Shown one piece after another: positions 1,529 through 63,042 of a stretch of DNA of 64,000 bases. The stretch is taken from positions 22,307 to 86,306 of the forward strand of contig JAQUYR010000001.1 of NCBI GenBank assembly GCA_028691715.1, read 5' to 3'. This stretch comes from Bacilli bacterium (lineage in GTDB: Bacteria; Bacillota_I; Bacilli_A; ML615J-28; CAG-698). Each line of letters begins with the position of its first letter. The first letter of the stretch is position 1. Under the pieces are notes generated by a model. The model made no database searches, was not told the origin of the DNA, and saw only the letters and a list, made by a program, of their open reading frames with translations. Position numbers and translations under genes: made by a program.

Positions 1529-3880
1529 CTATTTTTCCTTCTTCATTATCTTAATCAATCCTCTGATCACTCTGCCATTAGCAAAATCTACCATTCCCTC
1601 AGCATTAACAAGACTGATCCCCGCATCCCCAATTGCTACGATTCCTCTAAGTGGCATCTGGGTTGCTCCAGTAATATAATATTCTTTTTCGCTCTTGCTA
1701 GCATTCTTTGGAAGCATGGCTAGAGCCATTCTAATAATCTGTTTATATAGAACTCTTCCCCAAAAACTCGTCTTAAAATCCTCAGCCATAGAATTTAGAC
1801 TATAAGGTTTTTTTCTAATTGTTGATTTTGGTGGCAATGTTGTCTTCATTATTGAAGCGAAATCGGATTCTGTTACCTTCCATTCGCCAAGGTTATATGC
1901 TGTTTTTTGATGTTCAACAAAACCCTTATCGTTTTCTTTTCTTTCAACATCGCTTGATAAAATAACCTCATCAGCGTTTTTACATATCTGGATTTTATAT
2001 ATTCCCTTATCAACATGCCATTTTTTTAATAAAACATCATAATACGAGAAATCATTATAATCTAGGACAAAGGACACCTTTTTTTCTTCATTTGGTTCTA
2101 GATCAATCTTGACAAAATCTTTTAATTCACGCTTTGCTTTATATACAGAAGAATAATTATTTTCAATATATAATTGTACGACTTCCTTAGCCCTCATATT
2201 CCCTGTATTTTTTACTTTACAAAAAACAGTTATCTTTTCATCCTTTTCAATTGTTTTCTTGGAAACAATTAGGTCACTATATTCAAAACTGCTATAGCTT
2301 AAGCCATAACCAAAAGGATAATGAACTTTTTTATTAAAAGTAGTGAAATAGCGGTAACCAACAAAAATACTCTCCTCATAATATACAGCATTATTCCCAT
2401 CAGCAAAATTTTTTGATGTTATATAATCCTCTAGTTTATAGGCATATGTTTCACAAAGCCTTCCGCTTGGAGAAACTCTACCATATAAGATATCCAGAAC
2501 AGGAGTTCCACTAACCTGTCCTAAAAGATAACAATTTAGGATAGCTTTTACCTTTTTACTAAATGCAATTTCGATTGCTGATCCTAAAGACAGGGTAACA
2601 ATAATATTGGGATTAATCCTGCTGACCTCTTCAATAAGTTTGATTTGTCCATAAGGTAATTGAATATTATCGCGATCAATTCCTTCTGTTTCATTGACAA
2701 CCCCAACAACTATTACAACCTTGTCAAAGTTTTCGATTTCGGATTTAACTTCTTCTTGCAATAATTCATCATAGCAATCATCAGTTAAAGAATATCCTGG
2801 AAAATATTTATAATTCTTTGTGTAGTTATCGATTTCGGTTAAAATTGACTCCATTTTATAGGGATTAATATTAGAACTTCCTCCGCCCTGTGAACGAGGA
2901 TTCTTAGCAAATTCTCCAATTATTGCAACCTTGTCGCTTTCTTTTATTGGTAAAATCTTATCATTTTTAAGAAGTACTATTCCCTCTCTGGCAATATTTT
3001 TTGCAAGTTCATTGTGGGCTTCCATATCAGCTCTTTCAGAAGAAACATTTTTGAATTTGTTAACAGTTTCAATTACCTTTAAAGCTGCTTTGTCTATTTC
3101 TGCTTCGGATATCCTACCCTTTTTATATCCCTGATAAATTATTTTCCCGTTATAACCATTACTGTTAGGCATTTCAAGGTCAAGGCCATTCTTTATGCTT
3201 AAAACAGGATCATTAACAGCTCCCCAGTCAGACATGACCAATCCAGAATAATGCCATTCATCACGCAAAATATCCTGTAATAAATATTTATTCTGACAAG
3301 CATTGGTTCCATTCACTAAATTATAGCTAGCCATAACTGAAGAGACATTAACATCAACTGCTTGTTTGAATGCTTTTAAATATATCTCACGCAATGCTCT
3401 GTCATCAACAACCGAATCAATATTAAAACGATATTTTTCTTGTGAGTTGACAGCAAAATGCTTAATACAAGCACCAACATTTTCTTTTTGCATTCCCGTT
3501 ATAAAACTACTAGCCATTTTCCCCGCTAATATAGGGTCTTCTGAATAGTATTCAAAGTTTCGACCACAACGAGGATTCCTTTTTATATTAACTCCTGGTC
3601 CTAAAACTATCTGAACATCTTTTTCCTTAGCTTCTAACGCCAGAGCTTCACCCATTTTATATGCTAAATCTTTGTTAAAGGTGCAAGCCACTGTAGCTGC
3701 TGGAGGAAACAATGTTGCTGGATAAGAATCTTTAGTGTCATTGATTTCCTTACGAATGCCATGGGGGCCGTCAGCCATAAAAATGGATGGCAATCCAACC
3801 CGAGAAATATCTCTGGTCAACCATGGTGTTTTTCCGTTTAACAAACTAATTTTTTCTAAAATGGTCAGTTCTTTTAGCAT
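1529..3880 (-). CDS. GH3 family beta-glucosidase (BglX-like)
   Basis: 783-aa ORF; GH3 N-terminal (SDWGA...) and C-terminal domain signatures. Overlaps upstream GH2 stop by 7 nt (coupled). Confidence 0.85.
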   Translation of the reverse strand: MLKELTILEKISLLNGKTPWLTRDISRVGLPSIFMADGPHGIRKEINDTKDSYPATLFPPAATVACTFNKDLAYKMGEALALEAKEKDVQIVLGPGVNIKRNPRCGRNFEYYSEDPILAGKMASSFITGMQKENVGACIKHFAVNSQEKYRFNIDSVVDDRALREIYLKAFKQAVDVNVSSVMASYNLVNGTNACQNKYLLQDILRDEWHYSGLVMSDWGAVNDPVLSIKNGLDLEMPNSNGYNGKIIYQGYKKGRISEAEIDKAALKVIETVNKFKNVSSERADMEAHNELAKNIAREGIVLLKNDKILPIKESDKVAIIGEFAKNPRSQGGGSSNINPYKMESILTEIDNYTKNYKYFPGYSLTDDCYDELLQEEVKSEIENFDKVVIVVGVVNETEGIDRDNIQLPYGQIKLIEEVSRINPNIIVTLSLGSAIEIAFSKKVKAILNCYLLGQVSGTPVLDILYGRVSPSGRLCETYAYKLEDYITSKNFADGNNAVYYEESIFVGYRYFTTFNKKVHYPFGYGLSYSSFEYSDLIVSKKTIEKDEKITVFCKVKNTGNMRAKEVVQLYIENNYSSVYKAKRELKDFVKIDLEPNEEKKVSFVLDYNDFSYYDVLLKKWHVDKGIYKIQICKNADEVILSSDVERKENDKGFVEHQKTAYNLGEWKVTESDFASIMKTTLPPKSTIRKKPYSLNSMAEDFKTSFWGRVLYKQIIRMALAMLPKNASKSEKEYYITGATQMPLRGIVAIGDAGISLVNAEGMVDFANGRVIRGLIKIMKKEK

Positions 3881-6252
3881 TTTTGGATCCTTTCAACAAT
3901 TTTTAATTCCTCAGTTAAAACAATTCCATTTACTTCTATTTCTACTTTACCTGTATTACTCGTCTGATTAGTCTTAACCCAAAAACCAACAGCACCTCCT
4001 TGAAGTGGAAGGTTGCTTGGTCCTATCAAATCAATACCACCACTAACTTTTATATTACAACTAGCTATTCCATAAGGAACAACTATCTTATTTTGATCAA
4101 CCATTTTAACCACAAATCTTGTAACATCGTATGTGTTGTCAACTATCATCTCTTTTTTATCGATTTCTAGGACAAAGCTAGTTTTTCTGGTTTCGCTTAA
4201 TGTTTTAGTGATAACAACATTTTCATTAGCATAGCCATCAAAGCGGTAGTATTGATTTACTCCTGCTTTACCCATTGCATATTCATAAAAAATATCGACA
4301 ATTTTTACTCTTTTTAATTTATACTTAAACATTAAAAAGAGCATTCTCAGTAGATTTCTTAAAGATATTCTTCCTTGAGCAGCACTGACACTCTTAAATG
4401 CCTTTTTAGCCATTATGGATGATTTTCTTGTAAAGCCATACTTTTTTTCTAACTGAACACCGATAAAATCATCAACAATTATAACAGGATGTAAAAGATG
4501 TTTGTATTCCTTTTGATTAGGATAATAAGTACCAACATAATCATCATTCTTAAACATCTTGATATATTCACAATTAGTGGCAACATAAATCTTATCTAGT
4601 CGGCTTTCAGGATAATCTCCTCTAGCAAAAGTTGATAATACTTCCAAAACAAAAGGCTTTTCTCTTTGTGATGCAAAGGAGTAAGCAGCATATTTTGGTA
4701 TTCGATACATATCAACAACTCCATGATAACAAACATTATCGCCACTTCCAAAATCCTTATGAGTATTATAATCAGCAAAACACCAGCCGATTTCACCAAC
4801 AATATTGTCATCTTTCATCGATGCATTGATAACCCTTAAGTGCCTTAATGCCTGTTCTATTCTTATAGGATCATTATCGTATCGCTTTGTTGGAAACATG
4901 TGACCATTATTTTCGGTTACTAGATGAGGTGTCTTAGTCGGCTTTGCTAGCACCTTTTTACCACCATTATGTGAGAAATCATTAAATGTGTAGACATCCT
5001 CTAAAAACTTTGAGCCAAGGAAATTTCTGATTCCTCCTGTTGGTCTAGTATCGTCTAATTTATGAGCTAGTTCATTAGTTTTTTTATAAAATTCATCATC
5101 ATCAAAGGATTCATTTATTCTAACACCCCATAAAACTATTGACGGATGATTTTTATCTCTAGTTATCATTTTTTCAACATTGAGAATACTATTATTCTTG
5201 AACTCTTCATTTCCAATATGTTGCCAGCCAGGGATTTCTTCTAAAACCAGTAATCCTATTTCATCACAACGATTTAAAAAATGCTTTGATTGCATGTAAT
5301 GCGATGTTCTGACAATATTAACCCCTAAATCATACTTTAAAATATCAGCATCTTTTTCTTGGGCACTCTTTGGCATAGCATATCCAACATATGGATAACT
5401 CTGATGGCGATTAAGACCTCTGAGTTTAATTTTTTCTTCATTTAAATAGAAACCATTTTTTTCAAATTTTATTTCACGAAAGCCAAAACGATCTTTCATC
5501 TCATCCAATAAGACATTATCATCATACATCCTAACAATAATATCATACAAATAAGGATTGTCTAAATCCCAGATTTTTCTATCCTTCACGTCAAAATCAA
5601 CAGTTGTCTTTTCTCTATTGATATTGAAACGATTTAAAGAAACCTGCTTACCCTTATCCTGAACTTCCACTTCTATAATAACTGGTGTTTTATTAACTGT
5701 TATGTCACAAAAAGCAGTAATACTATTGTTAACATCCTTTGTCTTCACAAAAACATCAAGAATTCTATCTTTATCAGCAACTTCAAGATAAACCTCGCGA
5801 TAAATCCCTCCATAGCCCAGATAATCGACAATTCCTCCAAATGGAGGGACATTTGAATTCTCTCTGGAATCAACAATAACAGTTAGAATATTTTTTTCTC
5901 CATATTTAATGTATTCTGAAATATCCACTTTAAATTGATCATAGCCACCCTTATGAGTCGCTACAAAGTCATCGTTGATGTAAATTGTAGCTATATGAGC
6001 AACTCCTTCAAAAATAATAGTGATACTTTTATCCTTATATTCCTCTTTTATTTCAATATCGCGCTTATATGTAACCACTTTTTGAACATCTTTTTCATCA
6101 AAGTAGTTAAATGGTATTTCAAAACTGCTGTGAGGTATATTAACTTTCTCAAAACCAGTTATATTTGCATAGTCCTTTAAATGTTCATCTTGAAAACAAT
6201 CGGAAAAAAGCCAGTTAAAATTTAAATTTATATTTTCACGCATTAATATCAC
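3874..6252 (-). CDS. GH2 family glycoside hydrolase (beta-galactosidase/beta-mannosidase-like)
   Basis: 792-aa ORF; sugar-binding N-terminus and TIM-barrel region with NIVRTSHY and WGVRINES-type GH2 motifs. Confidence 0.75.
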   Translation of the reverse strand: MILMRENINLNFNWLFSDCFQDEHLKDYANITGFEKVNIPHSSFEIPFNYFDEKDVQKVVTYKRDIEIKEEYKDKSITIIFEGVAHIATIYINDDFVATHKGGYDQFKVDISEYIKYGEKNILTVIVDSRENSNVPPFGGIVDYLGYGGIYREVYLEVADKDRILDVFVKTKDVNNSITAFCDITVNKTPVIIEVEVQDKGKQVSLNRFNINREKTTVDFDVKDRKIWDLDNPYLYDIIVRMYDDNVLLDEMKDRFGFREIKFEKNGFYLNEEKIKLRGLNRHQSYPYVGYAMPKSAQEKDADILKYDLGVNIVRTSHYMQSKHFLNRCDEIGLLVLEEIPGWQHIGNEEFKNNSILNVEKMITRDKNHPSIVLWGVRINESFDDDEFYKKTNELAHKLDDTRPTGGIRNFLGSKFLEDVYTFNDFSHNGGKKVLAKPTKTPHLVTENNGHMFPTKRYDNDPIRIEQALRHLRVINASMKDDNIVGEIGWCFADYNTHKDFGSGDNVCYHGVVDMYRIPKYAAYSFASQREKPFVLEVLSTFARGDYPESRLDKIYVATNCEYIKMFKNDDYVGTYYPNQKEYKHLLHPVIIVDDFIGVQLEKKYGFTRKSSIMAKKAFKSVSAAQGRISLRNLLRMLFLMFKYKLKRVKIVDIFYEYAMGKAGVNQYYRFDGYANENVVITKTLSETRKTSFVLEIDKKEMIVDNTYDVTRFVVKMVDQNKIVVPYGIASCNIKVSGGIDLIGPSNLPLQGGAVGFWVKTNQTSNTGKVEIEVNGIVLTEELKIVERIQKC

Positions 6253-6317
6253 CTCTATCTTTTATTATAACATTAATCATATTTATATAAAAGCGTTTTT
6301 TTCTTAAAAATATGGCT

Positions 6318-6349
6318 TAAAAAAAGAAAAAGCACTAATTATTTAGTGC
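6318..6349 (-). terminator. Rho-independent terminator of the PI-PLC-like gene
   Basis: Minus-strand hairpin GCACUAA-AUAA-UUAGUGC (6332-6349, overlaps stop codon) followed by UUUUUCUUUUUUU. Confidence 0.5.
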
Positions 6350-7437
6350 AAATTTTCTTGATTATAAACGATGATATATTCATTTATTCTTTTATTGAAA
6401 TCCTTCTTTTGGGAAGTGGCATTGTCGACCATTAAAATCGGCATCGCTTTAAACCAATCATCAAGGTTATTTTGTTCTAAAATTAATGGATTAAAATTAG
6501 CCGCCATATCCAATAGGGACCACCCCACTAAAGTTGTAGCCACTTTATTTAAAGAATATAATCCTGTCTTCTGTGCTTGATTTACTCTAAATTTATCCTT
6601 ATCTAGATTGTTACTATTGATCAGTACTACTTCAGCATTTATTTTAGTCAACATGATTTCAGTTGAATTATCTTCGTGCCATGTTGAACGAATAGAATCC
6701 TGATAAACATAGTTGTATTCTCCAGCCTGTTCTGTTTTCATCAGAATTACAACTCCTGCTCTTGTACCATTTGTTGTAACATCATTATATTTTAGTTCTC
6801 CTAAAGAAATCTCCTGAGGATTATAGTTTATAAAAGATGTAAGTGTAATTCCTGGTAAGTTAAAGATTGGCTTAACTTCATGAAGTTCTAAATATTTTAA
6901 AAGATTATCATAAGTATTTTCTCCAAGATAGACATGTTGAAAATCAAGAATGGCTATTTCTCCAGTATTTTCATATAAAAAGCGAATTAATTCATCTAAG
7001 CTATCAGAAAACAATCCTGAGATTACTCCATGTTTTGTATACCAATTTCCATCAATAAAGGAAAGGCGGATATCAAAATAACGAACTCCTTGAACCAACA
7101 TGGTTGATGCTTCAACTTCCTGAGCTTTAGCTAACCTTGAGAAAAGGCCATTTGCTAGCAATCCTGCTACCCTGTTTCTTAAGATTGAACCCGCATCTTC
7201 AGCAATATCAACCTCAGATTTCTCGTCAATACCTGAGGTAAAGGCATCATGAGCACCAAGCATTGCAATATCAACAACTCTGGGGTTACTCGTTCCAACC
7301 CCCATTTTTATTACATCATTATATTCATTCCCGTCATATTTCCAACTAGTAAAATCAAAACTGGATTTACCAATCATGAGTAAAACAACAATCAAAAATA
7401 AAATGACTATTAAAATATTTTTTAGGATTTTTCTCAT
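6343..7437 (-). CDS. Membrane-anchored PI-PLC X-domain-like phosphodiesterase
   Basis: 364 aa; N-terminal hydrophobic signal-anchor (ILIVILFLIVVLLMIG). AMLGAHDAFTSG and YFDIRL...WYTKHG resemble the two catalytic-His regions of bacterial PI-PLC. Confidence 0.45.
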   Translation of the reverse strand: MRKILKNILIVILFLIVVLLMIGKSSFDFTSWKYDGNEYNDVIKMGVGTSNPRVVDIAMLGAHDAFTSGIDEKSEVDIAEDAGSILRNRVAGLLANGLFSRLAKAQEVEASTMLVQGVRYFDIRLSFIDGNWYTKHGVISGLFSDSLDELIRFLYENTGEIAILDFQHVYLGENTYDNLLKYLELHEVKPIFNLPGITLTSFINYNPQEISLGELKYNDVTTNGTRAGVVILMKTEQAGEYNYVYQDSIRSTWHEDNSTEIMLTKINAEVVLINSNNLDKDKFRVNQAQKTGLYSLNKVATTLVGWSLLDMAANFNPLILEQNNLDDWFKAMPILMVDNATSQKKDFNKRINEYIIVYNQENLH

Positions 7438-15755: not shown

Positions 15756-16484
15756 TCAATAATACACCTTATATAGATATAATCCTGAAGCAGGAGCAAT
15801 TTTAGGGGCAAAAACCCTGTTTTTTTCCTCTGTAATTACTTTTAGCTGTTCCTTTGAATATTTACCTCTTCCAACTTCTAGCCACATAGCAACCAAAATT
15901 CTAACCATGTTATGCATGAATCCTGAACCGATAATTTTAATCGTTAACAGGTCTTTATCCCAAAAAAAATCAATAGAATAAATTTCTCTGGTAGTATTTA
16001 ATAATTTCTTGTTTTTTGTAAAGGAACGAAAATCATGTTTACCAACAAATGATTTGGCAACCTCTTCTAAAAGTTGGCGGTCAATATTTCGAAAATGACA
16101 GTAATAGCGATAATTTCTATATAATGGATTGAATTCTCCAAAATCAATCATATAATGATATTCTTTCTTAACAGCATTAAATCTGGCATGAAATGAATCA
16201 TCAACCTTCTCCACCTTTGTCAGATAAATATCTTTGGGTAAGCGGGAATTAATCGCGTTTTGCATATTCCAACACCCCATAATTATATCACTGTCAAAAT
16301 GGAATACCTGTCCATAGGCATGAACACCAGTATCGGTTCTTCCAGAAGGATAAATTATCGTCTTACATTTATTGATTATCAATAAAACATCTTCGATTTC
16401 TTTCTGTACCGTTCTTAAATCATCTTGAATTTGAAAGCCATGAAAATTAGTACCATCATAACTAACTGTACATTTATAACGCAT
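15756..16484 (-). CDS. truA: tRNA pseudouridine(38-40) synthase
   Basis: 242 aa; MRYKCTVSYDGTNFHGFQIQ N-terminus, catalytic RTDTGVHA. Confidence 0.9.
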   Translation of the reverse strand: MRYKCTVSYDGTNFHGFQIQDDLRTVQKEIEDVLLIINKCKTIIYPSGRTDTGVHAYGQVFHFDSDIIMGCWNMQNAINSRLPKDIYLTKVEKVDDSFHARFNAVKKEYHYMIDFGEFNPLYRNYRYYCHFRNIDRQLLEEVAKSFVGKHDFRSFTKNKKLLNTTREIYSIDFFWDKDLLTIKIIGSGFMHNMVRILVAMWLEVGRGKYSKEQLKVITEEKNRVFAPKIAPASGLYLYKVYY

Positions 16485-17523
16485 AACAGATCCTCACAAT
16501 AATAGTAGCAGATAGCAGTAAAACACAAAAAGCTAGTGTTACATAGTCTTTCATCTGATATTTTAGTTCATTGACACTTGTTCGTGGCGCATCAGGAATA
16601 TAGCCTCTAGCTTCCATGGCATCAGCTAAATCGTATGCTCTTTTATAAGCAATAACAAACATCGGTACAAGTAGTGATATGATTTGCATCACTTTTGCGC
16701 CGATTTTCCCCTCTTTAAAATCCACTCCTCTTGAAGCTTGTGCCTTCAAAATTTTTTCTGCTTCATTTATCAATGTGGGGATAAATCTAAGCGCTATCGA
16801 AATCATCATTGTTAAGGTTGAAACCTTAACTCCTAGATATTTTAAAGGTTTTAAAATTGCTTCTAGACCATTATTTAAATCTGTTGGTTTAGTCGTTAAG
16901 GTTAGCAGTGAAGAGATGAATAGTAAAGATATAATTCTTAAAACGATATATAAAGACATCAACAATCCAGAATCATAAATCCTAATGTTGTAGCTAAACA
17001 AGGTATAGGAATAATTCATTTTGTATTGAATGAAAAAACTCAATAGTAAAATAAAAGTAAACAACAAAGTTCGTAAATTCTTAATAAATTTTTTTGATAA
17101 GAAATAAAAAACTAGCAGAAAAACTATTATTAAAGCGTTGATGATATCCATATTAAAGGATAAAGTCATCAACAAGGTTCCATCTTTACGAAAAATCAAC
17201 TGAAAAAAGAAAGTGAACAGAAGAATAAATGATACCATTTTTAAACTATTCAAAAATTTTAAAAGGGGAATTTTACTTGTAGCGATAATTACTAAAGTAA
17301 AGACTAAAATACCGCTTAAGATATAAACATTTTTTATTATAAATAACGATATCATATAGAGAAAAACAGCTATCAATTTAGTGCGAGGATCCAGGCGATG
17401 AATCCAGGAATCCGAATTATAATACTGTCCAAAAACAATTTTTTCATTCATGGCTTTCACCAAGAACCCGGTAGAGTTCAGAATAGGCATCCTTGATACT
17501 GTATTGATGAATATCAATATCAA
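16474..17523 (-). CDS. ecfT: ECF transporter transmembrane component EcfT (true start probably internal, near 17451)
   Basis: Multi-TM protein with the conserved EcfT C-terminal region. The ORF-track start overlaps ecfA2 by 80 nt; internal MNEKIVFGQYY...HRLDPRTKL fits typical EcfT N-termini. Confidence 0.8.
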   Translation of the reverse strand: MILIFINTVSRMPILNSTGFLVKAMNEKIVFGQYYNSDSWIHRLDPRTKLIAVFLYMISLFIIKNVYILSGILVFTLVIIATSKIPLLKFLNSLKMVSFILLFTFFFQLIFRKDGTLLMTLSFNMDIINALIIVFLLVFYFLSKKFIKNLRTLLFTFILLLSFFIQYKMNYSYTLFSYNIRIYDSGLLMSLYIVLRIISLLFISSLLTLTTKPTDLNNGLEAILKPLKYLGVKVSTLTMMISIALRFIPTLINEAEKILKAQASRGVDFKEGKIGAKVMQIISLLVPMFVIAYKRAYDLADAMEARGYIPDAPRTSVNELKYQMKDYVTLAFCVLLLSATIIVRICYAL

Positions 17524-18316
17524 TATTCAATTTTTCTTTGATTTCAATCATCAACTTCATCAATTCAGGATAGTCCAAATTGTGTTCCATTAAAATATCT
17601 TCTCTAGTAAACAATTCTTTTTTATCGCCATCGTAAACAATTCTAGCATCATCCATAACAATTACTCGCCTAGCAACGTCACTAACCACTTCCATGTCAT
17701 GGGTGATGATGATAATTGTCTTGTGCTCTTCCTCATTTATCTTTTTTAGTAAACTCAACAGTTCTTTTTTACCAAAAGGATCTAATCCGACCGTCGGCTC
17801 ATCTAAAATCAATATATCAGGATTGCTCGCTAATATTCCAGAGATAGCCACCTTACGCATTTGTCCTCCGGATATAGCAAAAGGACTTTTTTCAAGAATA
17901 TCCTCATCTAAGCCCACCATTTTGGCGACTTCTTTAGCTCTAGTTAAAGCCTCCTGAGAAGTCATACCAAAATTTTTAGGTCCAAAGATGATATCCTTGA
18001 TCACTGTTTCCTCAAAAAGCTGGTATTCAGGGAATTGAAAAACTAGTCCCACTTTTTTCCTGATGGGCTTTAGTTTAATATTGCTCTTTTTACTTATTAA
18101 TGTCCCTAAAATATTAACCTTACCATTTGTAGCAAAGAGAAGCGCGTTCATCAATTGAACCAGTGTACTCTTACCACTACCTGTGTGGCCAACTATCGCA
18201 ATAAACTCATCTCTTTCTTCAATGTTTAAATCTATATCCTTCAAGACGAAGTTTGCTTGTTGATTTTTTTTAGGAGCATAGTAAGCAAAATTTACTTTTT
18301 GAAAGTTAATTGCCAT
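17444..18316 (-). CDS. ecfA2: ECF transporter ATPase EcfA2
   Basis: 290 aa; Walker A GHTGSGKST, ABC signature, Walker B ILILDEP. Second ATPase of the ecfA1-ecfA2-ecfT-truA arrangement. Confidence 0.85.
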   Translation of the reverse strand: MAINFQKVNFAYYAPKKNQQANFVLKDIDLNIEERDEFIAIVGHTGSGKSTLVQLMNALLFATNGKVNILGTLISKKSNIKLKPIRKKVGLVFQFPEYQLFEETVIKDIIFGPKNFGMTSQEALTRAKEVAKMVGLDEDILEKSPFAISGGQMRKVAISGILASNPDILILDEPTVGLDPFGKKELLSLLKKINEEEHKTIIIITHDMEVVSDVARRVIVMDDARIVYDGDKKELFTREDILMEHNLDYPELMKLMIEIKEKLNIDIDIHQYSIKDAYSELYRVLGESHE

Positions 18317-19101
18317 AATAGATCCTCTATTTCTTCTCTATTCTTTAATTTATTATCCTCTTTTATTCTTTTAATCAATTTCATACTGCACAGAATATCG
18401 AGATTTGCTTCTAATAAAATCTCTTTTTCCTTAAACACATTTTCTGGAGTATCATTTAAAACTATTTCTCCATCATTCATAACAATCACTCTGTCCGCAT
18501 ATAAGGCTTCTTGAAGATTATGAGTAATCGAAATTATCGTTTTAAATCCCTTAAGCTTGTTAATCATCGCTGTTACTTCTCTTACTCCCTTTGGGTCTAG
18601 CATCGATGTCGCTTCATCAAAAATAATAACCTCAGGATGGCATGCTAAAACACCAGCAATCGCTACTCTTTGTTTTTCGCCACCGGATAGATTTTCTGGA
18701 TTGTAGTCCATAAATTTAGACATGTTTGTTAGATTAGCATATTGCTCAATTCTACTAAGCATTTCTTCTCTTTCAATCTGGCGATTCTCTAAGCCAAAGG
18801 CAATATCATCCTTAACAGTTACCCCAACAAATTGATTATCCGGATTCTGAAATACTATCCCAACATTTCTCCTCACTTCATCAATGGTGTTTTCCGATAT
18901 CAAAATATTATTGACATATATTTCCCCACTTTTTGGTTCCAATAAACCAACTATCAATTTCGCTAAGGTTGATTTACCACTACCATTATGCCCCAATATA
19001 CAAACAAATTCCCCTTTTTCAATTTCTAATGATATATTCTTAATGGCAACATCTTTCCTTGTATACTGAAAATTTAAATCCTTAATTTCAATTATTTTCA
19101 T
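18292..19101 (-). CDS. ecfA1: ECF transporter ATPase EcfA1
   Basis: 269 aa; Walker A GHNGSGKST, LSGGEKQR signature. Confidence 0.85.
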   Translation of the reverse strand: MKIIEIKDLNFQYTRKDVAIKNISLEIEKGEFVCILGHNGSGKSTLAKLIVGLLEPKSGEIYVNNILISENTIDEVRRNVGIVFQNPDNQFVGVTVKDDIAFGLENRQIEREEMLSRIEQYANLTNMSKFMDYNPENLSGGEKQRVAIAGVLACHPEVIIFDEATSMLDPKGVREVTAMINKLKGFKTIISITHNLQEALYADRVIVMNDGEIVLNDTPENVFKEKEILLEANLDILCSMKLIKRIKEDNKLKNREEIEDLLWQLTFKK

Positions 19102-19111
19102 ATATCTTCTC

Positions 19112-19552
19112 CTAAGATATTATTTCGATTTCACTGGTTACTAATTTAACCACTATTCCATTTGTACAAACTATTGGTGATCCTAAAAATTTATATATTC
19201 GCATCTTCATACAATAGTGATTTTTACAGCTCGCATCAATCATTTTTATTTCATCATAGGTTATCGATACTGTATTATAAAAATCTTTACTGATATCATA
19301 AATGAATTCGTATTCCTGACCATCAGCGTTTATCTTCAGTAAATCATTACTCCCAGTAATAGAAACTTCAATATTGGTATCTTCTTTTAAATCAACACTA
19401 TAAATAACATCATTATTATATAAAACCTGAACACTGATGTTATCCCCCTCAAGTTTGTTACTTATGTAGCCAAAATAAAAGGCTATGGATATCATTAAAA
19501 CTATTCCTATAATCAAATAATCAAGTTTTTTCATAGTCGCCTCTATTAACAT
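19112..19552 (-). CDS. NusG domain II-containing membrane-anchored protein (DUF1312-like)
   Basis: 146 aa; N-terminal TM helix then a beta-rich domain with CKNHYC...IVCTNG Cys pairs. This family commonly precedes ECF modules. Confidence 0.55.
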   Translation of the reverse strand: MLIEATMKKLDYLIIGIVLMISIAFYFGYISNKLEGDNISVQVLYNNDVIYSVDLKEDTNIEVSITGSNDLLKINADGQEYEFIYDISKDFYNTVSITYDEIKMIDASCKNHYCMKMRIYKFLGSPIVCTNGIVVKLVTSEIEIIS

Positions 19553-19819: not shown

Positions 19820-22168
19820 TTATTCGTTTCTTAAAGCTTCTACTGGAGATTTATAAGAAGCCACTATTGATGGAATCATTCCAGCAATTATTGTTAAAAC
19901 AACACTGCCTATTAATAGCATTACCAGATACTCCGGTTTTGTCTGCACAACATTAAATGTTGTTAATCCAGTTGTTAAAGATGTATTTTCAGCAATTATA
20001 CTCTTAACAAGACTGTCTATTGGATTACTCAACAGATACACCCCAATTATTCCTAGTATTCCAGAAGCCAGACCGATAAGCATCGTCTCAGCATTAAACA
20101 CTCTAGTGATGTCAAGCCTTCTTGCTCCAATGCTCCTCAGTATCCCAATTTCCTTCGTCCTTTCAATTACTGATATATAAGTTATGACTGCAATCATAAT
20201 TGAAGATACCACTAAAGAAATAGAGGCAAAAATGATTAATACTTTTGTCAGAACCGTGACGAATGTTGAAAACTCATTGGTAATTCGACTAGTATAATCG
20301 GAATAATTAACTTTTACATTGGCATCAGGATTATCATACGCCTTGATATAATTGGTTATACTCGTTCTATCATCAAACTTATCCGTATAGATATATAATC
20401 TGTTTATTTTTTTCATTCCATTCAATGTTATTAAGGTGGTTTCATATTGATATGATTTCGTCTGCGTAGAACTTATACCCACACTATCTTCAAATGGCAG
20501 GCCTGTAAAAACACTCTTATCGGTTTTATTAGCTATTTGTTCCTGAACTATTTGAGAGTCGAGAGCATTTTGATAAATCATTTCTGTCAATTTTTTGGTA
20601 TATAAAATACCAGAAGAATATAACTGTGTTGTGGCATTCTTCTCTATTCTCATAATGCCAACAATCTTTAAAGTTGTCTTTGCATTGTTGTATAAATCAG
20701 CATATCCTGATTTCCCTGTTGAATAGTACTTATCATCAACCTTCACATAATAATCATCATTTTCTATTAGTTTGAATTCCTTGCCAATGAATTCTTCAAA
20801 AGTGTATTCTGTTACTTCAGTGTAGTCTATCCCTAAATAATATAGCAGCATAGCACTAATACAGTTATAGCTATCAACAACCAGTGCAATTTCATCCGTC
20901 TCTGTTGGGATTTTGCCCTCTAGTACTGTATATTGCTCATCAACAAATTCAGTGTTATCAGTCATCTCATAGAAATAGGAATCAGTAACCTTTTGATAAG
21001 CTTCACCCTCTTTATACAAAAGATTTAAGCTGACCGAAGTTCCATAACTGATTAAGGTATACCAATCACTAGGCATCAGATCAATATATTCAAAAAACTC
21101 ATCCTCAATAGCATTGTAATGCTCATATTGGGTATTTCCCCGAACTACAGTTATTTTATTATCTGTTGGGAATTCAGTTAGTTTGCTATAAATAGATACT
21201 TCAGGAGAAGTTATCACCGAACTGCTCACCGTTATTGGATAATCACCTAAAGCAACTTTTTGAACATCATCAATATAAATATTTACCCCGTTTGATACCG
21301 ATAAAACTAAACCAACAGCTACGATTCCAATACAACCAGCAATAGTGGTTAACAATGTTCTTGTTATTTTTGATCTCAAGTTCAGAAAAGAAAGCGAAAT
21401 AGCTGTAAAGAATGGCATAGCTGTTTTCTTCTTTTTATCTTTAACATCTCTTTCTTCTTCAACATTTATAGGATTGCTGTCTGCAATTATTCTACCATCT
21501 AAGAGATTTATTTTTCTTGTAGCATACTGCTCAGCTAACTCCTGATTATGAGTTACCATCACCACCAGTCTATCCTTTGCTATTTCTTTTAAAATATCTA
21601 AAACTTGAATTGATGTTGTTGTGTCCAAAGCTCCTGTTGGTTCATCAGCTAATATTATCTGAGGGTTATTGACAATTGCTCTAGCGATAGCAACACGTTG
21701 CATTTGTCCACCGCTCAGTTGATTAGGCCTTTTATTTATCTGATCGATTAATCCAACATCCTCTAAAGCTTTAATTGCCTTTTCACGACACTTTTTCTTA
21801 GAAATCCCAGATAGTGTCAATGATAGTTCAACATTTCCCAATACCGAAAGGTGAGAGATTAGATTAAAACTCTGAAAGACAAAACCGACCCTTGTATTGC
21901 GATAGTTATCCCAATCAGAACTCTTATACATTTTAGTATTCTTACCATCTATATAGAAGTCTCCATCGGTATATCTATCTAGACCCCCAATGATATTTAG
22001 CAATGTTGTTTTACCACAGCCTGATGGCCCTAAAATACTAACAAATTCTTTTTCCCTAAACTTTAAATTGATTTTATCAAGTGCTCTTGAAGATATATTT
22101 CCTACCTTGTAATCTTTAATAATTTCTTTTAATTCAATCATAATATACCTCCAATGATATTTAATCAT
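19820..22168 (-). CDS. ABC transporter ATP-binding/FtsX-permease fusion (MacB-like)
   Basis: 782 aa; N-terminal ABC ATPase (GPSGCGKTT, LSGGQMQR). C-terminal 4-TM FtsX-type domain with large extracytoplasmic region. Confidence 0.8.
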   Translation of the reverse strand: MIKYHWRYIMIELKEIIKDYKVGNISSRALDKINLKFREKEFVSILGPSGCGKTTLLNIIGGLDRYTDGDFYIDGKNTKMYKSSDWDNYRNTRVGFVFQSFNLISHLSVLGNVELSLTLSGISKKKCREKAIKALEDVGLIDQINKRPNQLSGGQMQRVAIARAIVNNPQIILADEPTGALDTTTSIQVLDILKEIAKDRLVVMVTHNQELAEQYATRKINLLDGRIIADSNPINVEEERDVKDKKKKTAMPFFTAISLSFLNLRSKITRTLLTTIAGCIGIVAVGLVLSVSNGVNIYIDDVQKVALGDYPITVSSSVITSPEVSIYSKLTEFPTDNKITVVRGNTQYEHYNAIEDEFFEYIDLMPSDWYTLISYGTSVSLNLLYKEGEAYQKVTDSYFYEMTDNTEFVDEQYTVLEGKIPTETDEIALVVDSYNCISAMLLYYLGIDYTEVTEYTFEEFIGKEFKLIENDDYYVKVDDKYYSTGKSGYADLYNNAKTTLKIVGIMRIEKNATTQLYSSGILYTKKLTEMIYQNALDSQIVQEQIANKTDKSVFTGLPFEDSVGISSTQTKSYQYETTLITLNGMKKINRLYIYTDKFDDRTSITNYIKAYDNPDANVKVNYSDYTSRITNEFSTFVTVLTKVLIIFASISLVVSSIMIAVITYISVIERTKEIGILRSIGARRLDITRVFNAETMLIGLASGILGIIGVYLLSNPIDSLVKSIIAENTSLTTGLTTFNVVQTKPEYLVMLLIGSVVLTIIAGMIPSIVASYKSPVEALRNE

Positions 22169-22244
22169 TATTACATTAAATGTATCTTAACTTTAAATAT
22201 TATACTCTATTTTTCATCTTCTGTCGAGTTTCAATAACTCTAAA

Positions 22245-22287
22245 AATAAAAAGCATCATTTATCTGATTTATTTGATGCTTTTTATT
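22245..22287 (-). terminator. Rho-independent terminator of nrdDG
   Basis: AAAAAGCAUCA...UGAUGCUUUUU 11-bp stem (22248-22284) followed on minus strand by UUUUUAUUUUU; 3 nt after the nrdG stop. Confidence 0.6.
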
Positions 22288-22289
22288 TA

Positions 22290-22784
22290 CTATATATTAA
22301 CAATTACTACTTCTTTTTTTTCATATGTTTTTTTAACATCTATTATTCTCTGATTCGTACTTCCACGATATTTAATATCCAAACTCTTCTTTTCCTCGAC
22401 AAACTCACCATCAACAATCCAGTCAACATTTTCTAAGAGTTGTGATATGTTTGGTATTTTAACAATCTTTTCAAATTCATATCCCGTATACATCATTACA
22501 TTTAGTTTTCTTTCTTTAGCTTTTTTTGCCAGAATTGCACACTTACTCCATTGTAAAATTGGTTCTCCTCCAGAAATGGTAATCCCTGATAACAGTGGAT
22601 TACTATCAACCATCTCCATAATATCATCAATACTCATTTTAAATCCACCATTGATGTCATGAGTTTCTGGATTGTGGCATCCTTTACAAGCATGATAACA
22701 TCCCTGAGTAAATATTGTAAGTCTGAGCCCTGGACCATCAACTATTGAGTCGTTTATTATACCGGCTATTCTAATTAAATCCAT
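22290..22784 (-). CDS. nrdG: Anaerobic ribonucleoside-triphosphate reductase activating protein (radical SAM)
   Basis: 164 aa; CYHACKGCHNP cluster motif typical of NrdG. Overlaps the nrdD stop. Confidence 0.85.
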   Translation of the reverse strand: MDLIRIAGIINDSIVDGPGLRLTIFTQGCYHACKGCHNPETHDINGGFKMSIDDIMEMVDSNPLLSGITISGGEPILQWSKCAILAKKAKERKLNVMMYTGYEFEKIVKIPNISQLLENVDWIVDGEFVEEKKSLDIKYRGSTNQRIIDVKKTYEKKEVVIVNI

Positions 22785-25080
22785 GTTTTACTCTCTCTTT
22801 AACCTCTTGGAATTTAGCATCATTAAAGCGATCCAAGGTTCCAACAAGATATCCCGTTATTCTTCTGATCCTTTCAAACTTGATTTTTCCTTCAGTTCGT
22901 CCACATTTTGGGCAAACATCATTAATTATTCCATTATAACCACAGACAGGATCTCTATCAATTGGATGATTTACTGAACCATAACCGATTTTTTCATCAT
23001 GCATACATCTGATAATTTTTTCAAAAGCTTCAACATTATTAGCGATATCACCATCCACTTCTACATAGGTGATATGTCCAGCATTTGTCAGCTCATTGTA
23101 AGGAGCTTCTTTTTTTATCTTATTGTATATAGAGATATCATAATACACTGGTATATGAAAAGAGTTCGTATAAAATTCTCTATTTGTTACGCCTTCAATA
23201 CTACCATACTTCTTTTTGTCTATTTTAACAAATCTTCCCGATAAGCCTTCAGCTGGAGTAGCTAAAAGAGTGAAGTTCAATTGGTATTTCTCAGTATACT
23301 CATCACATTTCTTTCTCATAAATTTGATTATCTCTAAACCCAATTTTTGTGCTTCATCACTCTCCCCATGATGACATCCAATCAAACATTTTAAGGCCTC
23401 AGCTAGACCAATAAAACCAATCGAGAGTGTTCCGTGTTTTAAAACCTCACGGATTTCATCTCCTGTTTCTAATTTATCGGAATCAAGCCATATTCCCTGA
23501 CCCATTAAAAAGGGAAAATTATAGACCTTTTTTTGGCATTGAATTGCAAATCTCTCTAGAAGTTGATCTTTTACCAGATTCATCAAATATTCTAAGCGTT
23601 TATAGAAATCATCTATATTTCTATTTTCCAAAGCAATTCTTGGCAAGTTTATTGAAGTAAAACTCAGATTTCCTCTTCCACAGGTTATCTCTTTTTCTTT
23701 ATCAACGTTTGCTAGAACCCTTGTTCGACAGCCCATATAAGCAACTTCGCTGTTATAATCCCCTTTTTTATAATATTTTAAATTATATGGAGCATCTATG
23801 AAAGAGAAGTTGGGAAACAATCTCTTCCCCGATGTATAAATAGCTTTTTTAAATAAATCATAATTTATATCTTCTTTATTATAATTTATCCCCTCTTTTA
23901 CCTTAAATATTTGAATGGGAAATATCGGTGTTTCCCCGTCACCAAGCCCTTTTAGAGTTGCTTCAAGAAGACAATCGACTACCATTCTTCCCTCTTCTGA
24001 TGTATCAGTACCATAATTTAAGGAACTAAATGGAACCTGTGCTCCAGCTCGCGAATGCATCGTATTTAGATTATGAATTAGCGCTTCCATTGCTTGAAAA
24101 GTATCATCCCATGTTTCCTCACAAGTGTATTTGATTATTTTAGGATACAAATTTTTGATATCTACTTGGGGATATTCTTTTGATAATTCAACAATCATGA
24201 AATCATCAAAGGTTGGATTTTTTAATCTCAAATCCTCTTTAGAGACCTCTAAAACCTTGTTTATTGTAATCTTAAGATCATCAATGGTAAGATTATCAAC
24301 AAACAAAGAGAGTACTTTATATAAATTTTTCTGATAATTTTTTTTATATGTTTTTCTAACTCCATCAGCCATGGCATAATCAAAATTAGGAATGCTCTGA
24401 CCACCGTGTTGGTCATTTTGATTAGCCTGAATCGCAATACAAGCAAGCGAAGCATAGCTCCTGATACTATTGGGTTCTCTGATATAGCCATCTCCAGTTG
24501 AAAAACCATCCTTAAATAGTTTTATTAAATCCATCTGACAACATGTCATTGTTAAAGAATAGAAATCGAGATCGTGGATATGGATATCGCCATTGATATG
24601 GGCTTTAGAAAAAGCAGGGTTAATCACTTCTTGTAAATAGAACTCCTTTGCTGATTCACTACCATATTTTAACATGGTTCCCATAGCGGTATTCCCATCA
24701 ATATTAGCATTTTCTCTTAAAACATTGCTCTCTTTAGAATCACTAAAGGTTATTTCTCTGAGAGTCTTCATCAGTCTTGTTTTCGAATCACGAATCCTCG
24801 TTCTTTCTGCCCGATATAAAATATATTCTTTGGCAATATCAGAATGATTTTCCATAATCAAAGTTTTTTCGATTTCATCCTGAATCTGTTCAACTGTTGG
24901 GATTGTTTCTCCATATTTCTGATCTAAAATATGAATTACCTTATCCGTTATTTCCTCAGAAACTTTATTTGTTTCAAAAGTTGTTTTATTAACAACTTCG
25001 CTGGCCTTCTTGATGGCATTGAATATTTTATTCTGGTCAAATAAAACCTTTCTTCCATCTCTTTTAACAATGTACTTCAT
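22771..25080 (-). CDS. nrdD: Anaerobic ribonucleoside-triphosphate reductase (class III)
   Basis: 769 aa; N-terminal ATP-cone (VKRDGRKVLFDQNKI), C-terminal glycyl-radical region and Zn-ribbon CPKCG. RBS GGAGG 6 nt upstream. Confidence 0.9.
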   Translation of the reverse strand: MKYIVKRDGRKVLFDQNKIFNAIKKASEVVNKTTFETNKVSEEITDKVIHILDQKYGETIPTVEQIQDEIEKTLIMENHSDIAKEYILYRAERTRIRDSKTRLMKTLREITFSDSKESNVLRENANIDGNTAMGTMLKYGSESAKEFYLQEVINPAFSKAHINGDIHIHDLDFYSLTMTCCQMDLIKLFKDGFSTGDGYIREPNSIRSYASLACIAIQANQNDQHGGQSIPNFDYAMADGVRKTYKKNYQKNLYKVLSLFVDNLTIDDLKITINKVLEVSKEDLRLKNPTFDDFMIVELSKEYPQVDIKNLYPKIIKYTCEETWDDTFQAMEALIHNLNTMHSRAGAQVPFSSLNYGTDTSEEGRMVVDCLLEATLKGLGDGETPIFPIQIFKVKEGINYNKEDINYDLFKKAIYTSGKRLFPNFSFIDAPYNLKYYKKGDYNSEVAYMGCRTRVLANVDKEKEITCGRGNLSFTSINLPRIALENRNIDDFYKRLEYLMNLVKDQLLERFAIQCQKKVYNFPFLMGQGIWLDSDKLETGDEIREVLKHGTLSIGFIGLAEALKCLIGCHHGESDEAQKLGLEIIKFMRKKCDEYTEKYQLNFTLLATPAEGLSGRFVKIDKKKYGSIEGVTNREFYTNSFHIPVYYDISIYNKIKKEAPYNELTNAGHITYVEVDGDIANNVEAFEKIIRCMHDEKIGYGSVNHPIDRDPVCGYNGIINDVCPKCGRTEGKIKFERIRRITGYLVGTLDRFNDAKFQEVKERVKHGFN

Positions 25081-25085
25081 TTCAT

Positions 25086-25125
25086 ACCTCCATAAAAAAA
25101 ATTCTAATTAAAAAACTAGAATCTT
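25086..25125 (-). terminator. Putative expression-platform terminator between riboswitch aptamer and nrdD RBS
   Basis: Minus strand AGAUUCUAG-uuuuuuaa-UUAGAAU followed by U8, directly abutting the GGAGG RBS. AT-rich weak stem. Confidence 0.4.
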
Positions 25126-25199
25126 AAAAATGCGAAAATAGTATAAAAATATTCTCGTATTTCTCAAATCCCAGGAGAAATTAAATAATTTCTTTTAAA

Positions 25200-25335
25200 A
25201 GGCAAGTCTACCGGCTTAATTTCATTTTACTCACCAGCCTTCCCATAGTTTCCTACAGTGGCGTAAATTGGTTTTCATCGATAACACGGTTGCTGGGACA
25301 GCTTAGGCCTGATACCTAATTCCTTTTTAAACAAA
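25200..25335 (-). promoter_or_regulatory. Cobalamin (B12) riboswitch aptamer in the nrdDG leader
   Basis: Minus strand reads ...CGCCACUGU (B12 box; plus ~25255-25263) ...GGGAAGGCUGGUGAG... AAGCCGGUAGACUUGCC (3' end; plus 25201-25217). The 3' end matches the canonical AAGCCAGGAGACCUGCC. The segment is distinctly GC-richer than flanking DNA. Confidence 0.55.
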
Positions 25336-25421
25336 AGTCAGTTAATCTAATCTTTTGTACCTTTTATGCCATTATATGCTTACTATTGCCTCAAGTCAAT
25401 ATGAAAACATATTTACATTTT

Positions 25422-25460
25422 CCAAATTAAAAGGTTGCTTAGCAATTTCTGCTAGCAACC
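25422..25460 (-). terminator. Rho-independent terminator of the ribosomal alpha operon (after rplQ)
   Basis: Minus strand GGUUGCUAGCAGAAAUUGCUAAGCAACC hairpin followed by UUUUAAUUU; ~9 nt after the rplQ stop. Confidence 0.65.
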
Positions 25461-25468
25461 CATATGTT

Positions 25469-25831
25469 TTAAACGAATTCTATAATCGCCATAGATGCAG
25501 AATCTCCGCGTCTAGGACCTGTTTTTAATACTCTTGTATATCCGCCTTTTCTGTCTTGATATTTTGGAGCAATTTCTGAGAATAGTTTTTGAACTGCATA
25601 TTCCTTCTCATTTGCCATTTCAAATCTAACAAGCTCAGCAGCTTGGCATCTTGCAGCTAAAGTACCTTTTTTACCAAGAGTAACCATTTTATCGGCCAAT
25701 CTTTGTAGTTCTTTAGCTTTATAAAGAGTAGTTTCAATACGTTCATTAATTATAAGATCGGTAATTAAATCTCTAAGTAAAGCCTTACGTTGAGCAGAAT
25801 TACGACCTAATCTTCGATAACCTAATGACAT
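25469..25831 (-). CDS. rplQ: 50S ribosomal protein L17
   Basis: 120 aa; [22 protein letters not shown] typical bL17. Last gene of alpha operon. Confidence 0.93.
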
Positions 25832-27915: not shown

Positions 27916-28134
27916 TTATTTGTGTCGATAAGTAATACGGCCACGTGTTAAGTCGTATGGTGATAGTTCTACAGTTACTCTATCACCTGGTAAAATGAAT
28001 ATGAAGTTCATACGGATTTTACCAGAAACGTGGGCAATTATTTGATGTCCATTATCCAATTTTACTCTAAAAATAGAATTTGGTAAGGACTCAGTAACTG
28101 TACCTTTTAGTTCTATTACATCACTTTTCGACAT
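27916..28134 (-). CDS. infA: Translation initiation factor IF-1
   Basis: ORF track begins at an upstream ATG (28152). Internal ATG at 28134 ([13 protein letters not shown]...) has GGAGG 8 nt upstream and gives the usual 72-aa IF-1. Confidence 0.9.
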
Positions 28135-28906
28135 TGGCAATGCCTCCTTCAATCGTTAATATTTCATATCCTTGTTCAGTGATAACAATGGAATGTTCAA
28201 AATGAGCACTATCGCTTCCATCGGCTGTTACAGTTGTCCAATCATCTTTTAAAATTCTGACATCAGATTTTCCTGTGTTTACCATTGGTTCAATAGCTAA
28301 AGTCATTCCTACTCTTAATACAGGTCCATGACCTGCAGGTCCATAATTAGGAATCATTGGATCCTCATGTAAATCTCTGCCAACGCCATGACCTGTAAAG
28401 TCTTTAACGACACTAAAGCCATTAGCTAGAACATATTCTTCAATTGCATGAGAAATATCGGATAAACGATTTTGGGGTTTAGCAAATTCTAAGCCTCTAT
28501 AAAGAGATTCTTTTGTTACTTCAAGAAGTTTCTTTCTAGATTGGCTTATCTCACCAACACCATGAGTCATAGCGCTATCACCATGGTAACCTTTATAATT
28601 AGCTCCGATGTCGATAGCGATAATATCACCGCTTTTTAATTTAATTTTTTCACTTGGGATACCATGAATGACAACATTATTTATTGAAGCGCAAATAGAT
28701 CCAGGAAAATCACCATATCCTTTGAATGATGGTGTTGCTCCTGCTGCTCTAATTACATCCTCAGCAATCTTATCGAGTTGGGCAGTAGAAACCCCTGGAG
28801 CTATTGCTTCTTTTACTGCTCTGTGAGCATGAGCAACAATTCTTCCCGCTTCTTTCATCAACTCTATTTCACGATTACTCTTAATTAAAATCATCAATGC
28901 CTCCAA
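28121..28906 (-). CDS. map: Type I methionine aminopeptidase
   Basis: 261 aa; metal ligands in D..D..H..E..E arrangement ([14 protein letters not shown]...HGVG...). Between adk and infA. Confidence 0.9.
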
Positions 28907-56011: not shown

Positions 56012-56027
56012 TGTAACATTTGTTACA
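56012..56027. promoter_or_regulatory. CRP/FNR-type operator TGTAA-CATTTG-TTACA
   Basis: Perfect 5-N6-5 inverted repeat. Overlaps +1 of the crp-like promoter, and sits at about -41.5 relative to a TATAAT -10 of the divergent SBP-permease operon. Confidence 0.45.
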
Positions 56028-56040
56028 GAAAGGAAACGAT

Positions 56041-56652
56041 ATGAACGTTTACACTCATCCTTTTCTATTGGGGCATTCTATTGATTGCAACAGATATATT
56101 ACCATCAAACATTATAAGAAGGGTGATATTATCCATTCTGAAGGAGATATTTGTGATCATTTATCCCTGGTTTCTTTAGGAAATGTTTCTGTTTCTACAT
56201 ATACTTATTCGGAAAAAGAGTATTCAATAGCCAGCATTAACTCTGGTGGAATATTCGGACAGTTCTTACTCTTCTCCGATAATCCCCATTTCCTTGGTAA
56301 TGTTATAGCAACCACTAAAGCAACGATAATCAGAATAAATAAAGATAACTTATTAAGAATGTTAAGTGAGGATAGAGTTATTTTAACAAACTTCTTAGGA
56401 ATAGTAGCAACTTCTTTTATTTCTATTCAAGAGAGAGTAAAAATTCTATCTCAGAAATCGATAAAAGACAGCATTATGTTCTACATAAATGAGATAACAA
56501 AAAAGACAAAGCAAAAAACAATTTATATCAAGAGCAAAGAAACTTTAGCAAAATATCTAAACATTCCCAGGCCTTCACTTTCACGTTCTTTGATCGCCCT
56601 AAAAAAAGAGGGGCTTATCAGTATTAATGGAAAATATATTACAAAAATATAA
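56041..56652 (+). CDS. Crp/Fnr family transcriptional regulator (cNMP-binding domain + C-terminal HTH)
   Basis: ORF track uses TTG at 56020; ATG at 56041 has AAAGGAAA RBS. Beta-roll cNMP-binding region and HTH LAKYLNIPRPSLSRSLIALKKEGLI. No FNR-type N-terminal Cys cluster. Confidence 0.8.
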   Translation: MNVYTHPFLLGHSIDCNRYITIKHYKKGDIIHSEGDICDHLSLVSLGNVSVSTYTYSEKEYSIASINSGGIFGQFLLFSDNPHFLGNVIATTKATIIRINKDNLLRMLSEDRVILTNFLGIVATSFISIQERVKILSQKSIKDSIMFYINEITKKTKQKTIYIKSKETLAKYLNIPRPSLSRSLIALKKEGLISINGKYITKI

Positions 56653-56653
56653 A

Positions 56654-56694
56654 AAGCATAAATCAAAAATATGATTTATGCTTGTTTTTTTTAT
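56654..56694. terminator. Bidirectional terminator between crp-like gene (+) and hydA (-)
   Basis: 12-bp perfect stem AAGCAUAAAUCA/UGAUUUAUGCUU with U-runs on both strands. Confidence 0.7.
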
Positions 56695-60292: not shown

Positions 60293-60301
60293 AATTTCCT
60301 C

Positions 60302-62252: not shown

Positions 62253-62259
62253 AAACCAC

Positions 62260-63041: not shown

Positions 63042-63042
63042 A

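Follow-up and report, generated by a model that had tools for sequence, protein, structure and literature searches.

A cobalamin riboswitch in the nrdD-nrdG leader of a Bacilli-type MAG: sequence elements and proposed function as a transcriptional OFF switch

We show here that the nrdDG operon, which encodes a class III anaerobic ribonucleotide reductase (RNR) and its activase, is preceded by a cobalamin riboswitch in a 64 kb stretch of DNA from a low-GC Bacilli-type MAG (the whole stretch is termed the window in the following). The leader matches the Rfam Cobalamin family, RF00174, with 100.4 bits and an E value of 6.5e-24, about three times the gathering threshold of 31.5 bits. The match covers model positions 1-189 of 189 and is not truncated, and it is the only gathering-level Rfam match in the window. 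An initial annotation of the region had proposed a cobalamin riboswitch leader of nrdDG and had named the covariance-model search as a check, which the proposal has passed. Taking aptamer and expression platform together, we consider it likely that this leader is a class-I-type (P6-extension-bearing) cobalamin/corrinoid riboswitch that acts as a transcriptional OFF switch in front of nrdD and nrdG. The conserved core motifs of the family, GCCACUG and GGGAAGG, as well as the 3' B12 box AGCCnGnAGACnUGCC, are all found intact in the aptamer (Table 1), and every motif quoted in the initial annotation, CGCCACUGU, GGGAAGGCUGGUGAG and AAGCCGGUAGACUUGCC, is present on the minus strand. One of these had been called the B12 box; the sequence is there, but the name seems misplaced, since the original nomenclature (Vitreschak/Rodionov 2003) reportedly reserves this term for the 3' AGCCGGUAGACUUGCC element and treats the GCCACUG core as a separate conserved element. 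Likewise, a GC-enriched element had been described correctly (GC content 0.45 in 25200-25299, compared to 0.20-0.22 in the expression platform and about 0.30 nearby), but its extent of about 135 nt was too short. With a 5' start at 25335, P1 and the P2 hairpin are left out: the P1 5' arm reaches about 25366 and the Rfam match 25379, and counted from one P1 arm to the other the element is therefore about 170 nt long. In a MAFFT alignment of 11 related sequences, 5 of the 25 consensus pairs carry changes on both sides, located in the P4 stem and in the GCCACUG-proximal stem/P6 region; the 5' end (P1/P2) is poorly aligned and pairs were counted elsewhere.

Table 1. Positions of the riboswitch, its expression platform and the flanking genes in the window, ordered in the direction of transcription
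Feature	Position	Strand	Details
rplQ (L17)	25831-25469	-	
rplQ terminator hairpin	~25460-25429	-	G+C-rich; read from sequence
Inverted repeat GAAAA-N10-TTTTC	25403..25422	-	AT-rich, directly 5' of -35; possible operator; read from sequence
Sigma-70-type promoter TTGACT-17-TATAAT	25371..25399	-	11/12 consensus matches
Cobalamin riboswitch aptamer	25184..25379	-	RF00174, full model
P1 arms of aptamer	25366-25360 + 25202-25196	-	sequence coordinates
Loop L5 UCCCAG of aptamer	25298-25293	-	
CGCCACUGU	~25263-25255	-	motif quoted in initial annotation
GCCACUG core motif	25262-25256	-	
GGGAAGG core motif	25244-25238	-	
GGGAAGGCUGGUGAG	from 25244	-	segment quoted in initial annotation
3' B12 box AAGCCGGUAGACUUGCC	25217-25201	-	
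Hairpin H1 GAAAUUA/UAAUUUC	25177..25192	-	
P13 hairpin AUUUCUC/GAGAAAU	25159..25181	-	
Loop L13 CUGGGAUUU of P13	25174-25166	-	complementary to L5
Predicted antiterminator	25116..25174	-	folding
Hairpin H3 CGAGAAUA/UAUUUUCG	25157-25133	-	
Intrinsic terminator (accepted on folding and conservation)	25094..25125	-	AT-rich stem AAGAUUCUAGUU/AAUUAGAAUUUU, 12 bp, UUUU loop, U8 tract
Shine-Dalgarno GGAGG (25091-25087) and nrdD start codon ATG (25080-25078)	25078..25091	-	
nrdD, class III anaerobic ribonucleoside-triphosphate reductase	22771..25080	-	NF005497 1113 bits; PF13597 E 6.6e-199
nrdG, radical-SAM activase of NrdD	22290..22784	-	overlaps nrdD end; TIGR02491 146.9 bits
Terminator-like hairpin AAAAAGCAUCA...UGAUGCUUUUU + U run	22244..22284	-	3' of nrdG; read from sequence

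The riboswitch lies between rplQ and nrdD, just where the initial annotation had placed it. The sigma-70-type promoter puts the predicted start of the riboswitch-nrdDG transcript at about 25365-25363, and with a start at about 25364 the P1 helix has only 5-6 bp. The -35 block CATATTGACT of this promoter is kept in relatives. From the 3' end of the aptamer it is about 100 nt to the nrdD start codon on the same strand, and an open-reading-frame check of this interval found no ORF between riboswitch and nrdD. The NrdD protein (MDD3170734.1; the locus tags of the MAG begin with PHO86_) contains ATP-cone, NRDD and glycyl-radical domains. Behind nrdG, the terminator-like hairpin with its U run, which the strict terminator scan did not list, is followed by a separate promoter-like site for a MacB-like ABC gene. 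Thus, the regulated unit is nrdDG.

The linkage of riboswitch and nrdDG is found in four other distinct lineages with NrdD proteins 62-76% identical to that of the window and with differing gene neighbourhoods. These are L044/L045 (NrdD 76% identical, RF00174 89.1 bits), in which GHL10 lies upstream and SecA downstream, unlike in the window, L050/L051/L054 (73%), L060 (66%) and L049/L057 (62-63%). In L046-L048 (NrdD 73% identical) nrdDG occurs without the riboswitch, no B12-box motif was found within 800 nt upstream of nrdD in 42 species-representative genomes (NrdD 52-70% identical, including Tissierella), and RF00174 had no match in seven Tissierella-group loci. The absence from L046-L048 and from the 42 representative genomes gives the linkage a patchy distribution, which is what one would expect of a regulatory add-on that goes with gene content. 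Six further metagenomic cobalamin riboswitches share the lineage-specific 3' signature and the P13/L13 platform (L061 7450-8398; L052; L055; L059; L056, oriented 1679-3063; L053, oriented 5521-6911); they stand on metagenomic contigs other than that of the window. All six precede a gene for a DUF4430 lipoprotein and one for a CbrT-like polytopic ECF S-component, and two of the loci, L056 and L053, have a gene for a PduO-type adenosyltransferase next to these (TIGR00636, 127-135 bits). The CbrT-like protein is similar to CbrT of PDB 6FNP chain A (E 1.3e-10; the variant in L056/L053 reaches E 0.07 only), and no Pfam or NCBIfam model matched the CbrT-like proteins. Judging from this gene content, the sibling riboswitches would control genes for B12 uptake and adenosylation (DUF4430, CbrT-like, sometimes PduO).

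Several of these nrdD promoters have a further element in common. Directly upstream of the -35 box CATATTGAC of the window lies the inverted repeat GAAAATGTAAATATGTTTTC, with the general form TGAAAA...TTTTCA. L050/L051/L054 and L049/L057 have the same AT-rich block before the -35, and the nrdD upstream regions of L044 and of L046, which lacks the riboswitch, contain a related palindrome. The repeat is kept in nrdD promoters with and without riboswitch and is unlike the NrdR box; it may be an operator for a further regulator. NrdR boxes were searched with ACACWATATWTWGTGT, allowing up to 3 mismatches: no site was found near the nrdDG promoter, and window-wide there were 4 against 7.9 expected. 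In the Tissierellaceae locus L038 (NrdD 70% identical), which has no riboswitch, two NrdR-box-like sequences, ACACTATATATTGAGG and TAACAATATGTAGCGT, were recognized by eye at 5915-5975. Their position around the nrdD promoter suggests that the neighbouring lineage controls this operon differently.

Sequence elements of two alternative conformations are present between aptamer and nrdD. The AT-rich hairpin and U8 tract before the GGAGG of nrdD, already seen in the initial annotation, were recovered here: the hairpin (25125-25098) and the U8 tract (25101-25094) are followed by AU (25093-25092) and then by GGAGG. Folding assigns the stem, which contains a single G-C pair, -8.3 to -8.5 kcal/mol. 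A strict terminator scan of 24900-25600 gave no match because the stem has only this one G-C pair, but we accept the hairpin in view of its folding and its conservation: all 11 related leaders contain an equivalent hairpin with U6-8 behind it. According to our models, hairpin and U tract would act like a terminator inside a coherent kissing-loop/antiterminator platform. Within the loop of P13, CUGGGA (25174-25169) is perfectly complementary to UCCCAG of the aptamer loop L5, and therefore L13 is the likely kissing-loop partner of L5. This complementarity (CCCAG/CUGGG, at least 5 nt) is kept in 11 of 11 distinct related leaders; since L5 and L13 are invariant among them, the kissing loop is supported by conservation and not by covariation. 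When the platform is folded without the aptamer, it adopts a long antiterminator, in which CUGGGAUUU/AGAUUCUAG (9 bp), AGAAAU/AUUUUU (6 bp) and H3 are stacked, and which draws on L13, the P13 3' arm and the terminator 5' arm. The hairpin H1, for which one compensatory change was seen (GAAAUAA/UUAUUUC in L044), is assigned to the ligand-free state because it competes with the 5' arm of P13.

We propose that in the ligand-bound state a corrinoid, probably adenosylcobalamin, binds the aptamer and that L5 then kisses L13. This would lock P13 and leave the terminator 5' arm free, so that the AT-rich terminator with its U8 tract could form just 5' of the Shine-Dalgarno sequence and transcription would halt before nrdD. 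In the ligand-free state, L13 and the P13 3' arm would pair across H3 with the terminator 5' arm, and with the antiterminator formed RNA polymerase would read into nrdDG. Hence, B12 availability most likely stops transcription before nrdDG in this model. A transcriptional OFF switch is proposed because P13 and the terminator do not overlap (they are 33 nt apart and both can form together), which matches the repressing architecture of the Priestia megaterium metE switch. In that corrinoid riboswitch, whose architecture was established by compensatory mutagenesis, P13 is stabilised by the kissing loop, which allows the terminator to form; when this does not happen, the 3' half of P13 base-pairs with the 5' half of the terminator (PMC10327014). 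Both leaders share the L5-L13 kissing loop, P13 and a terminator apart from P13, but P. megaterium controls metE and the window nrdDG, in the window L13 additionally contributes to the predicted antiterminator, and all helices are much more A/U-rich. Moreover, the metE switch has been dissected by mutagenesis, whereas that of the window is known from sequence and folding.

For the window platform, the antiterminator is predicted at -17.6 kcal/mol compared to -9.7 for P13 plus H3, and the complete bound-like and free-like states differ little in energy (-18.5 and -19.5). In equilibrium folding the terminator of the window has a probability of 0.78 when the platform is free and of 0.94 with L13 blocked, which is a modest shift. 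Equilibrium thus already favours the terminator, and the switch would have to be kinetic. Blocking L13 in silico also raises the terminator probability in L060 (0.01 to 0.96), L049 (0.13 to 0.98), L055 (0.03 to 0.96) and L050 (0.59 to 0.96). An antiterminator is predicted in the window, L050, L049, L060 and L055 and is not evident in four of the eleven homologues, L044, L052, L053 and L059. Because the equilibrium probabilities are mixed across homologues, the antiterminator model relies on kinetic reasoning. Inside the platform and downstream of the aptamer there is also a promoter-like site, TTGAGA-16-TATACT (10/12; 25140-25167, minus strand), that could yield riboswitch-independent transcripts; 2.8 such matches are expected per 700 nt of A/T-rich DNA.

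The terminator stem is very weak and the Shine-Dalgarno sequence begins just 2 nt past the U tract, and both features would suit a riboswitch that acts mainly on translation. The bound state would then sequester GGAGG, for example by UCUCC (25178-25174) or by the P1-proximal CCUUUU, similar to the E. coli btuB and env8 riboswitches, and the hairpin with U8 would be no working terminator. Such masking does appear in folding: in the minimum-free-energy fold of the full leader with P1, the region around UUUCUCC is base-paired to that of the U tract and GGAGG, and the platform-only fold pairs CCUUUUAAAAGAAAUU with the U tract and GGAGG. However, these pairings consume nucleotides of L13 or P13 and are therefore incompatible with the conserved kissing loop between L5 and L13. 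They are A/U-rich and not conserved, the Shine-Dalgarno context of L044 being different (GAGGUG), and in the bound-like model the Shine-Dalgarno sequence stays unpaired. The retention of hairpin and U run in each of the 11 leaders, as well as the G+C-rich classical terminators that leaders of CbrT-type operons have 15-40 nt 5' of the Shine-Dalgarno sequence, also speak against it, and we regard a mainly translational mode as unlikely.

Even less probable are a reversed sign and a loss of function. Activating corrinoid riboswitches are known (PMC10327014), and a switch like that of A. halodurans cobT would induce nrdDG when B12 is present. Yet P13 and terminator can coexist here, there is no known rationale for B12 inducing a B12-independent enzyme, and the documented nrdDG cases (PMC545781, PMC3848588) are all interpreted as repression, so that we give an ON switch very little weight. 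Just as hard to believe is a decaying, non-functional remnant, or a riboswitch that regulates something other than nrdDG. The patchy linkage, with L046-L048 and the Tissierella group lacking the element, would fit with decay, but the score far above the gathering threshold and the intact core motifs do not, and aptamer and platform are conserved down to 62% NrdD identity across differing gene neighbourhoods, with no ORF separating the riboswitch from nrdD.

If the leader is a transcriptional OFF switch, the B12-independent, oxygen-sensitive class III RNR would be made only under B12 scarcity, and with B12 at hand its role would presumably pass to a class II RNR that depends on B12 (NrdJ). That the genome carries NrdJ is predicted on this established logic. 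In the window, Pfam and NCBIfam scans of 45 ORFs (minus- and plus-strand ORFs of at least 100 aa) revealed no nrdJ, btuFCD or cob/cbi genes, nor did the short contig extensions L062/L063 with a few kb of extra flank or any of the fetched loci, and a scan for the motif NxCxE had no match in 152 long ORFs. Second ATP-cone ORFs, detected by ATP-cone BLAST in the fetched loci, were considered as NrdJ candidates and turned out to be NrdD paralogues of RF39-like MAGs instead. In these RF39-like 'Bacilli' MAGs the second, divergent NrdD paralogue is about 720-745 aa long, contains an ATP-cone, carries a glycyl-radical motif at its C terminus, and sits 3.5-5 kb upstream of the query-matching NrdD (L041 2485-, L030 1363-, L022 2492- and about 12 other loci). 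A MAG without any B12-dependent RNR, in which the riboswitch gates the sole RNR and corrinoid throttles dNTP synthesis, appears improbable to us; if true, the gating would be a growth or community signal instead of an isozyme choice. As a milder alternative, the operator-like repeat at 25422-25403 may mark a regulator that takes the place of NrdR in this lineage.

The window encodes an ECF energising module EcfA1/EcfA2/EcfT, of which EcfA1 and EcfA2 pass the NCBIfam cut-offs and EcfT belongs to the CbiQ family; an ECF S-component was not found in the 64 kb. Together with the operons under the sibling riboswitches, this module points indirectly to B12 uptake of the ECF-CbrT type in these bacteria; the initial annotation had predicted a route for B12 uptake or salvage along with NrdJ. 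The genes ecfA1-ecfA2-ecfT-truA (16474-19101 and 15756-16484, minus strand) come after the ribosomal cluster, which is the usual order in Firmicutes, and between rplQ and ecfA1 lie nrdDG, a MacB-like ABC/FtsX fusion (19820-22168) and a NusG_II-domain gene (19112-19552). Further away, a cluster for a HydABC-type electron-bifurcating [FeFe]-hydrogenase (56691-63528, minus strand) is interleaved with genes for small histidine-kinase-like ATPase and PHP-domain proteins, and a gene for a Crp/Fnr-family regulator (56020-56652) is divergent from it. The hydrogenase cluster fits a strictly anaerobic host. The methionine aminopeptidase gene, one ORF of 261 aa in the window (28121-28906), is called as two fragments in the near-identical ENA contig L043 (2187-2960); either a frameshift or a difference between the assemblies could be behind this.

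B12 elements in front of nrdDG were reportedly first noted by Rodionov et al. in 2003. For the nrdABS genes of Streptomyces coelicolor, Borovok et al. (2006) are said to have found that coenzyme B12 represses the B12-independent RNR via a leader riboswitch while NrdJ supplies dNTPs; that case concerns a class Ia RNR in an aerobe, whereas the window encodes a class III RNR and its host is probably a strict anaerobe. The precedent that the initial annotation had named, B12 riboswitches before B12-independent RNR operons, is indeed on record (PMC545781, PMC3848588). In Desulfovibrio vulgaris and Desulfuromonas, both of which also have NrdJ, B12 elements lie upstream of nrdDG and are interpreted as a means by which B12 represses the B12-independent isozyme, a finding attributed to earlier work (PMC545781). 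As in the window, the cobalamin riboswitch is found directly 5' of the class III RNR operon and the repression logic would be the same; however, these are Deltaproteobacteria that encode NrdJ, while for the low-GC Bacilli-type MAG NrdJ is only predicted. The nrdDG and nrdAB leaders of Propionibacterium (Cutibacterium) acnes carry annotated cobalamin riboswitches, nrdJ is expressed, and RNA-seq data for the nrdAB leader agree with premature termination there (PMC3848588). The riboswitch in the nrdDG 5' UTR is thus common to both, but P. acnes belongs to the actinobacteria, has RNRs of three classes and possesses NrdR boxes, whereas no NrdR-like box was found at the nrdDG promoter of the window. 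In Lactobacillus delbrueckii, which has the ECF-CbrT transporter (PDB 6FNP), nrdJ, cbrS, cbrT and pduO form a cluster (PMC5997447). The sibling loci with DUF4430, CbrT-like and sometimes PduO genes mirror the cbrS-cbrT-pduO part of this cluster, and the window carries the EcfA1/A2/T module that such transporters need. In contrast to L. delbrueckii, the sibling loci have no adjacent nrdJ and stand on other metagenomic contigs.

Thus, both the riboswitch class and its association with nrdDG are already established, and the window case is an ordinary member, since the arrangement has been well documented (2003-2004). Current understanding is not challenged by this nrdDG riboswitch. What it contributes is a further presumed case in which cofactor supply decides between RNR isozymes, here in anaerobic low-GC Bacilli of an uncultured lineage that has received little study. 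With its explicit kissing loop, antiterminator and terminator, the A/U-rich platform would illustrate, in compact natural form, how the transcriptional corrinoid switches that were dissected recently are designed, and the organism is predicted to be a B12 scavenger with NrdJ.
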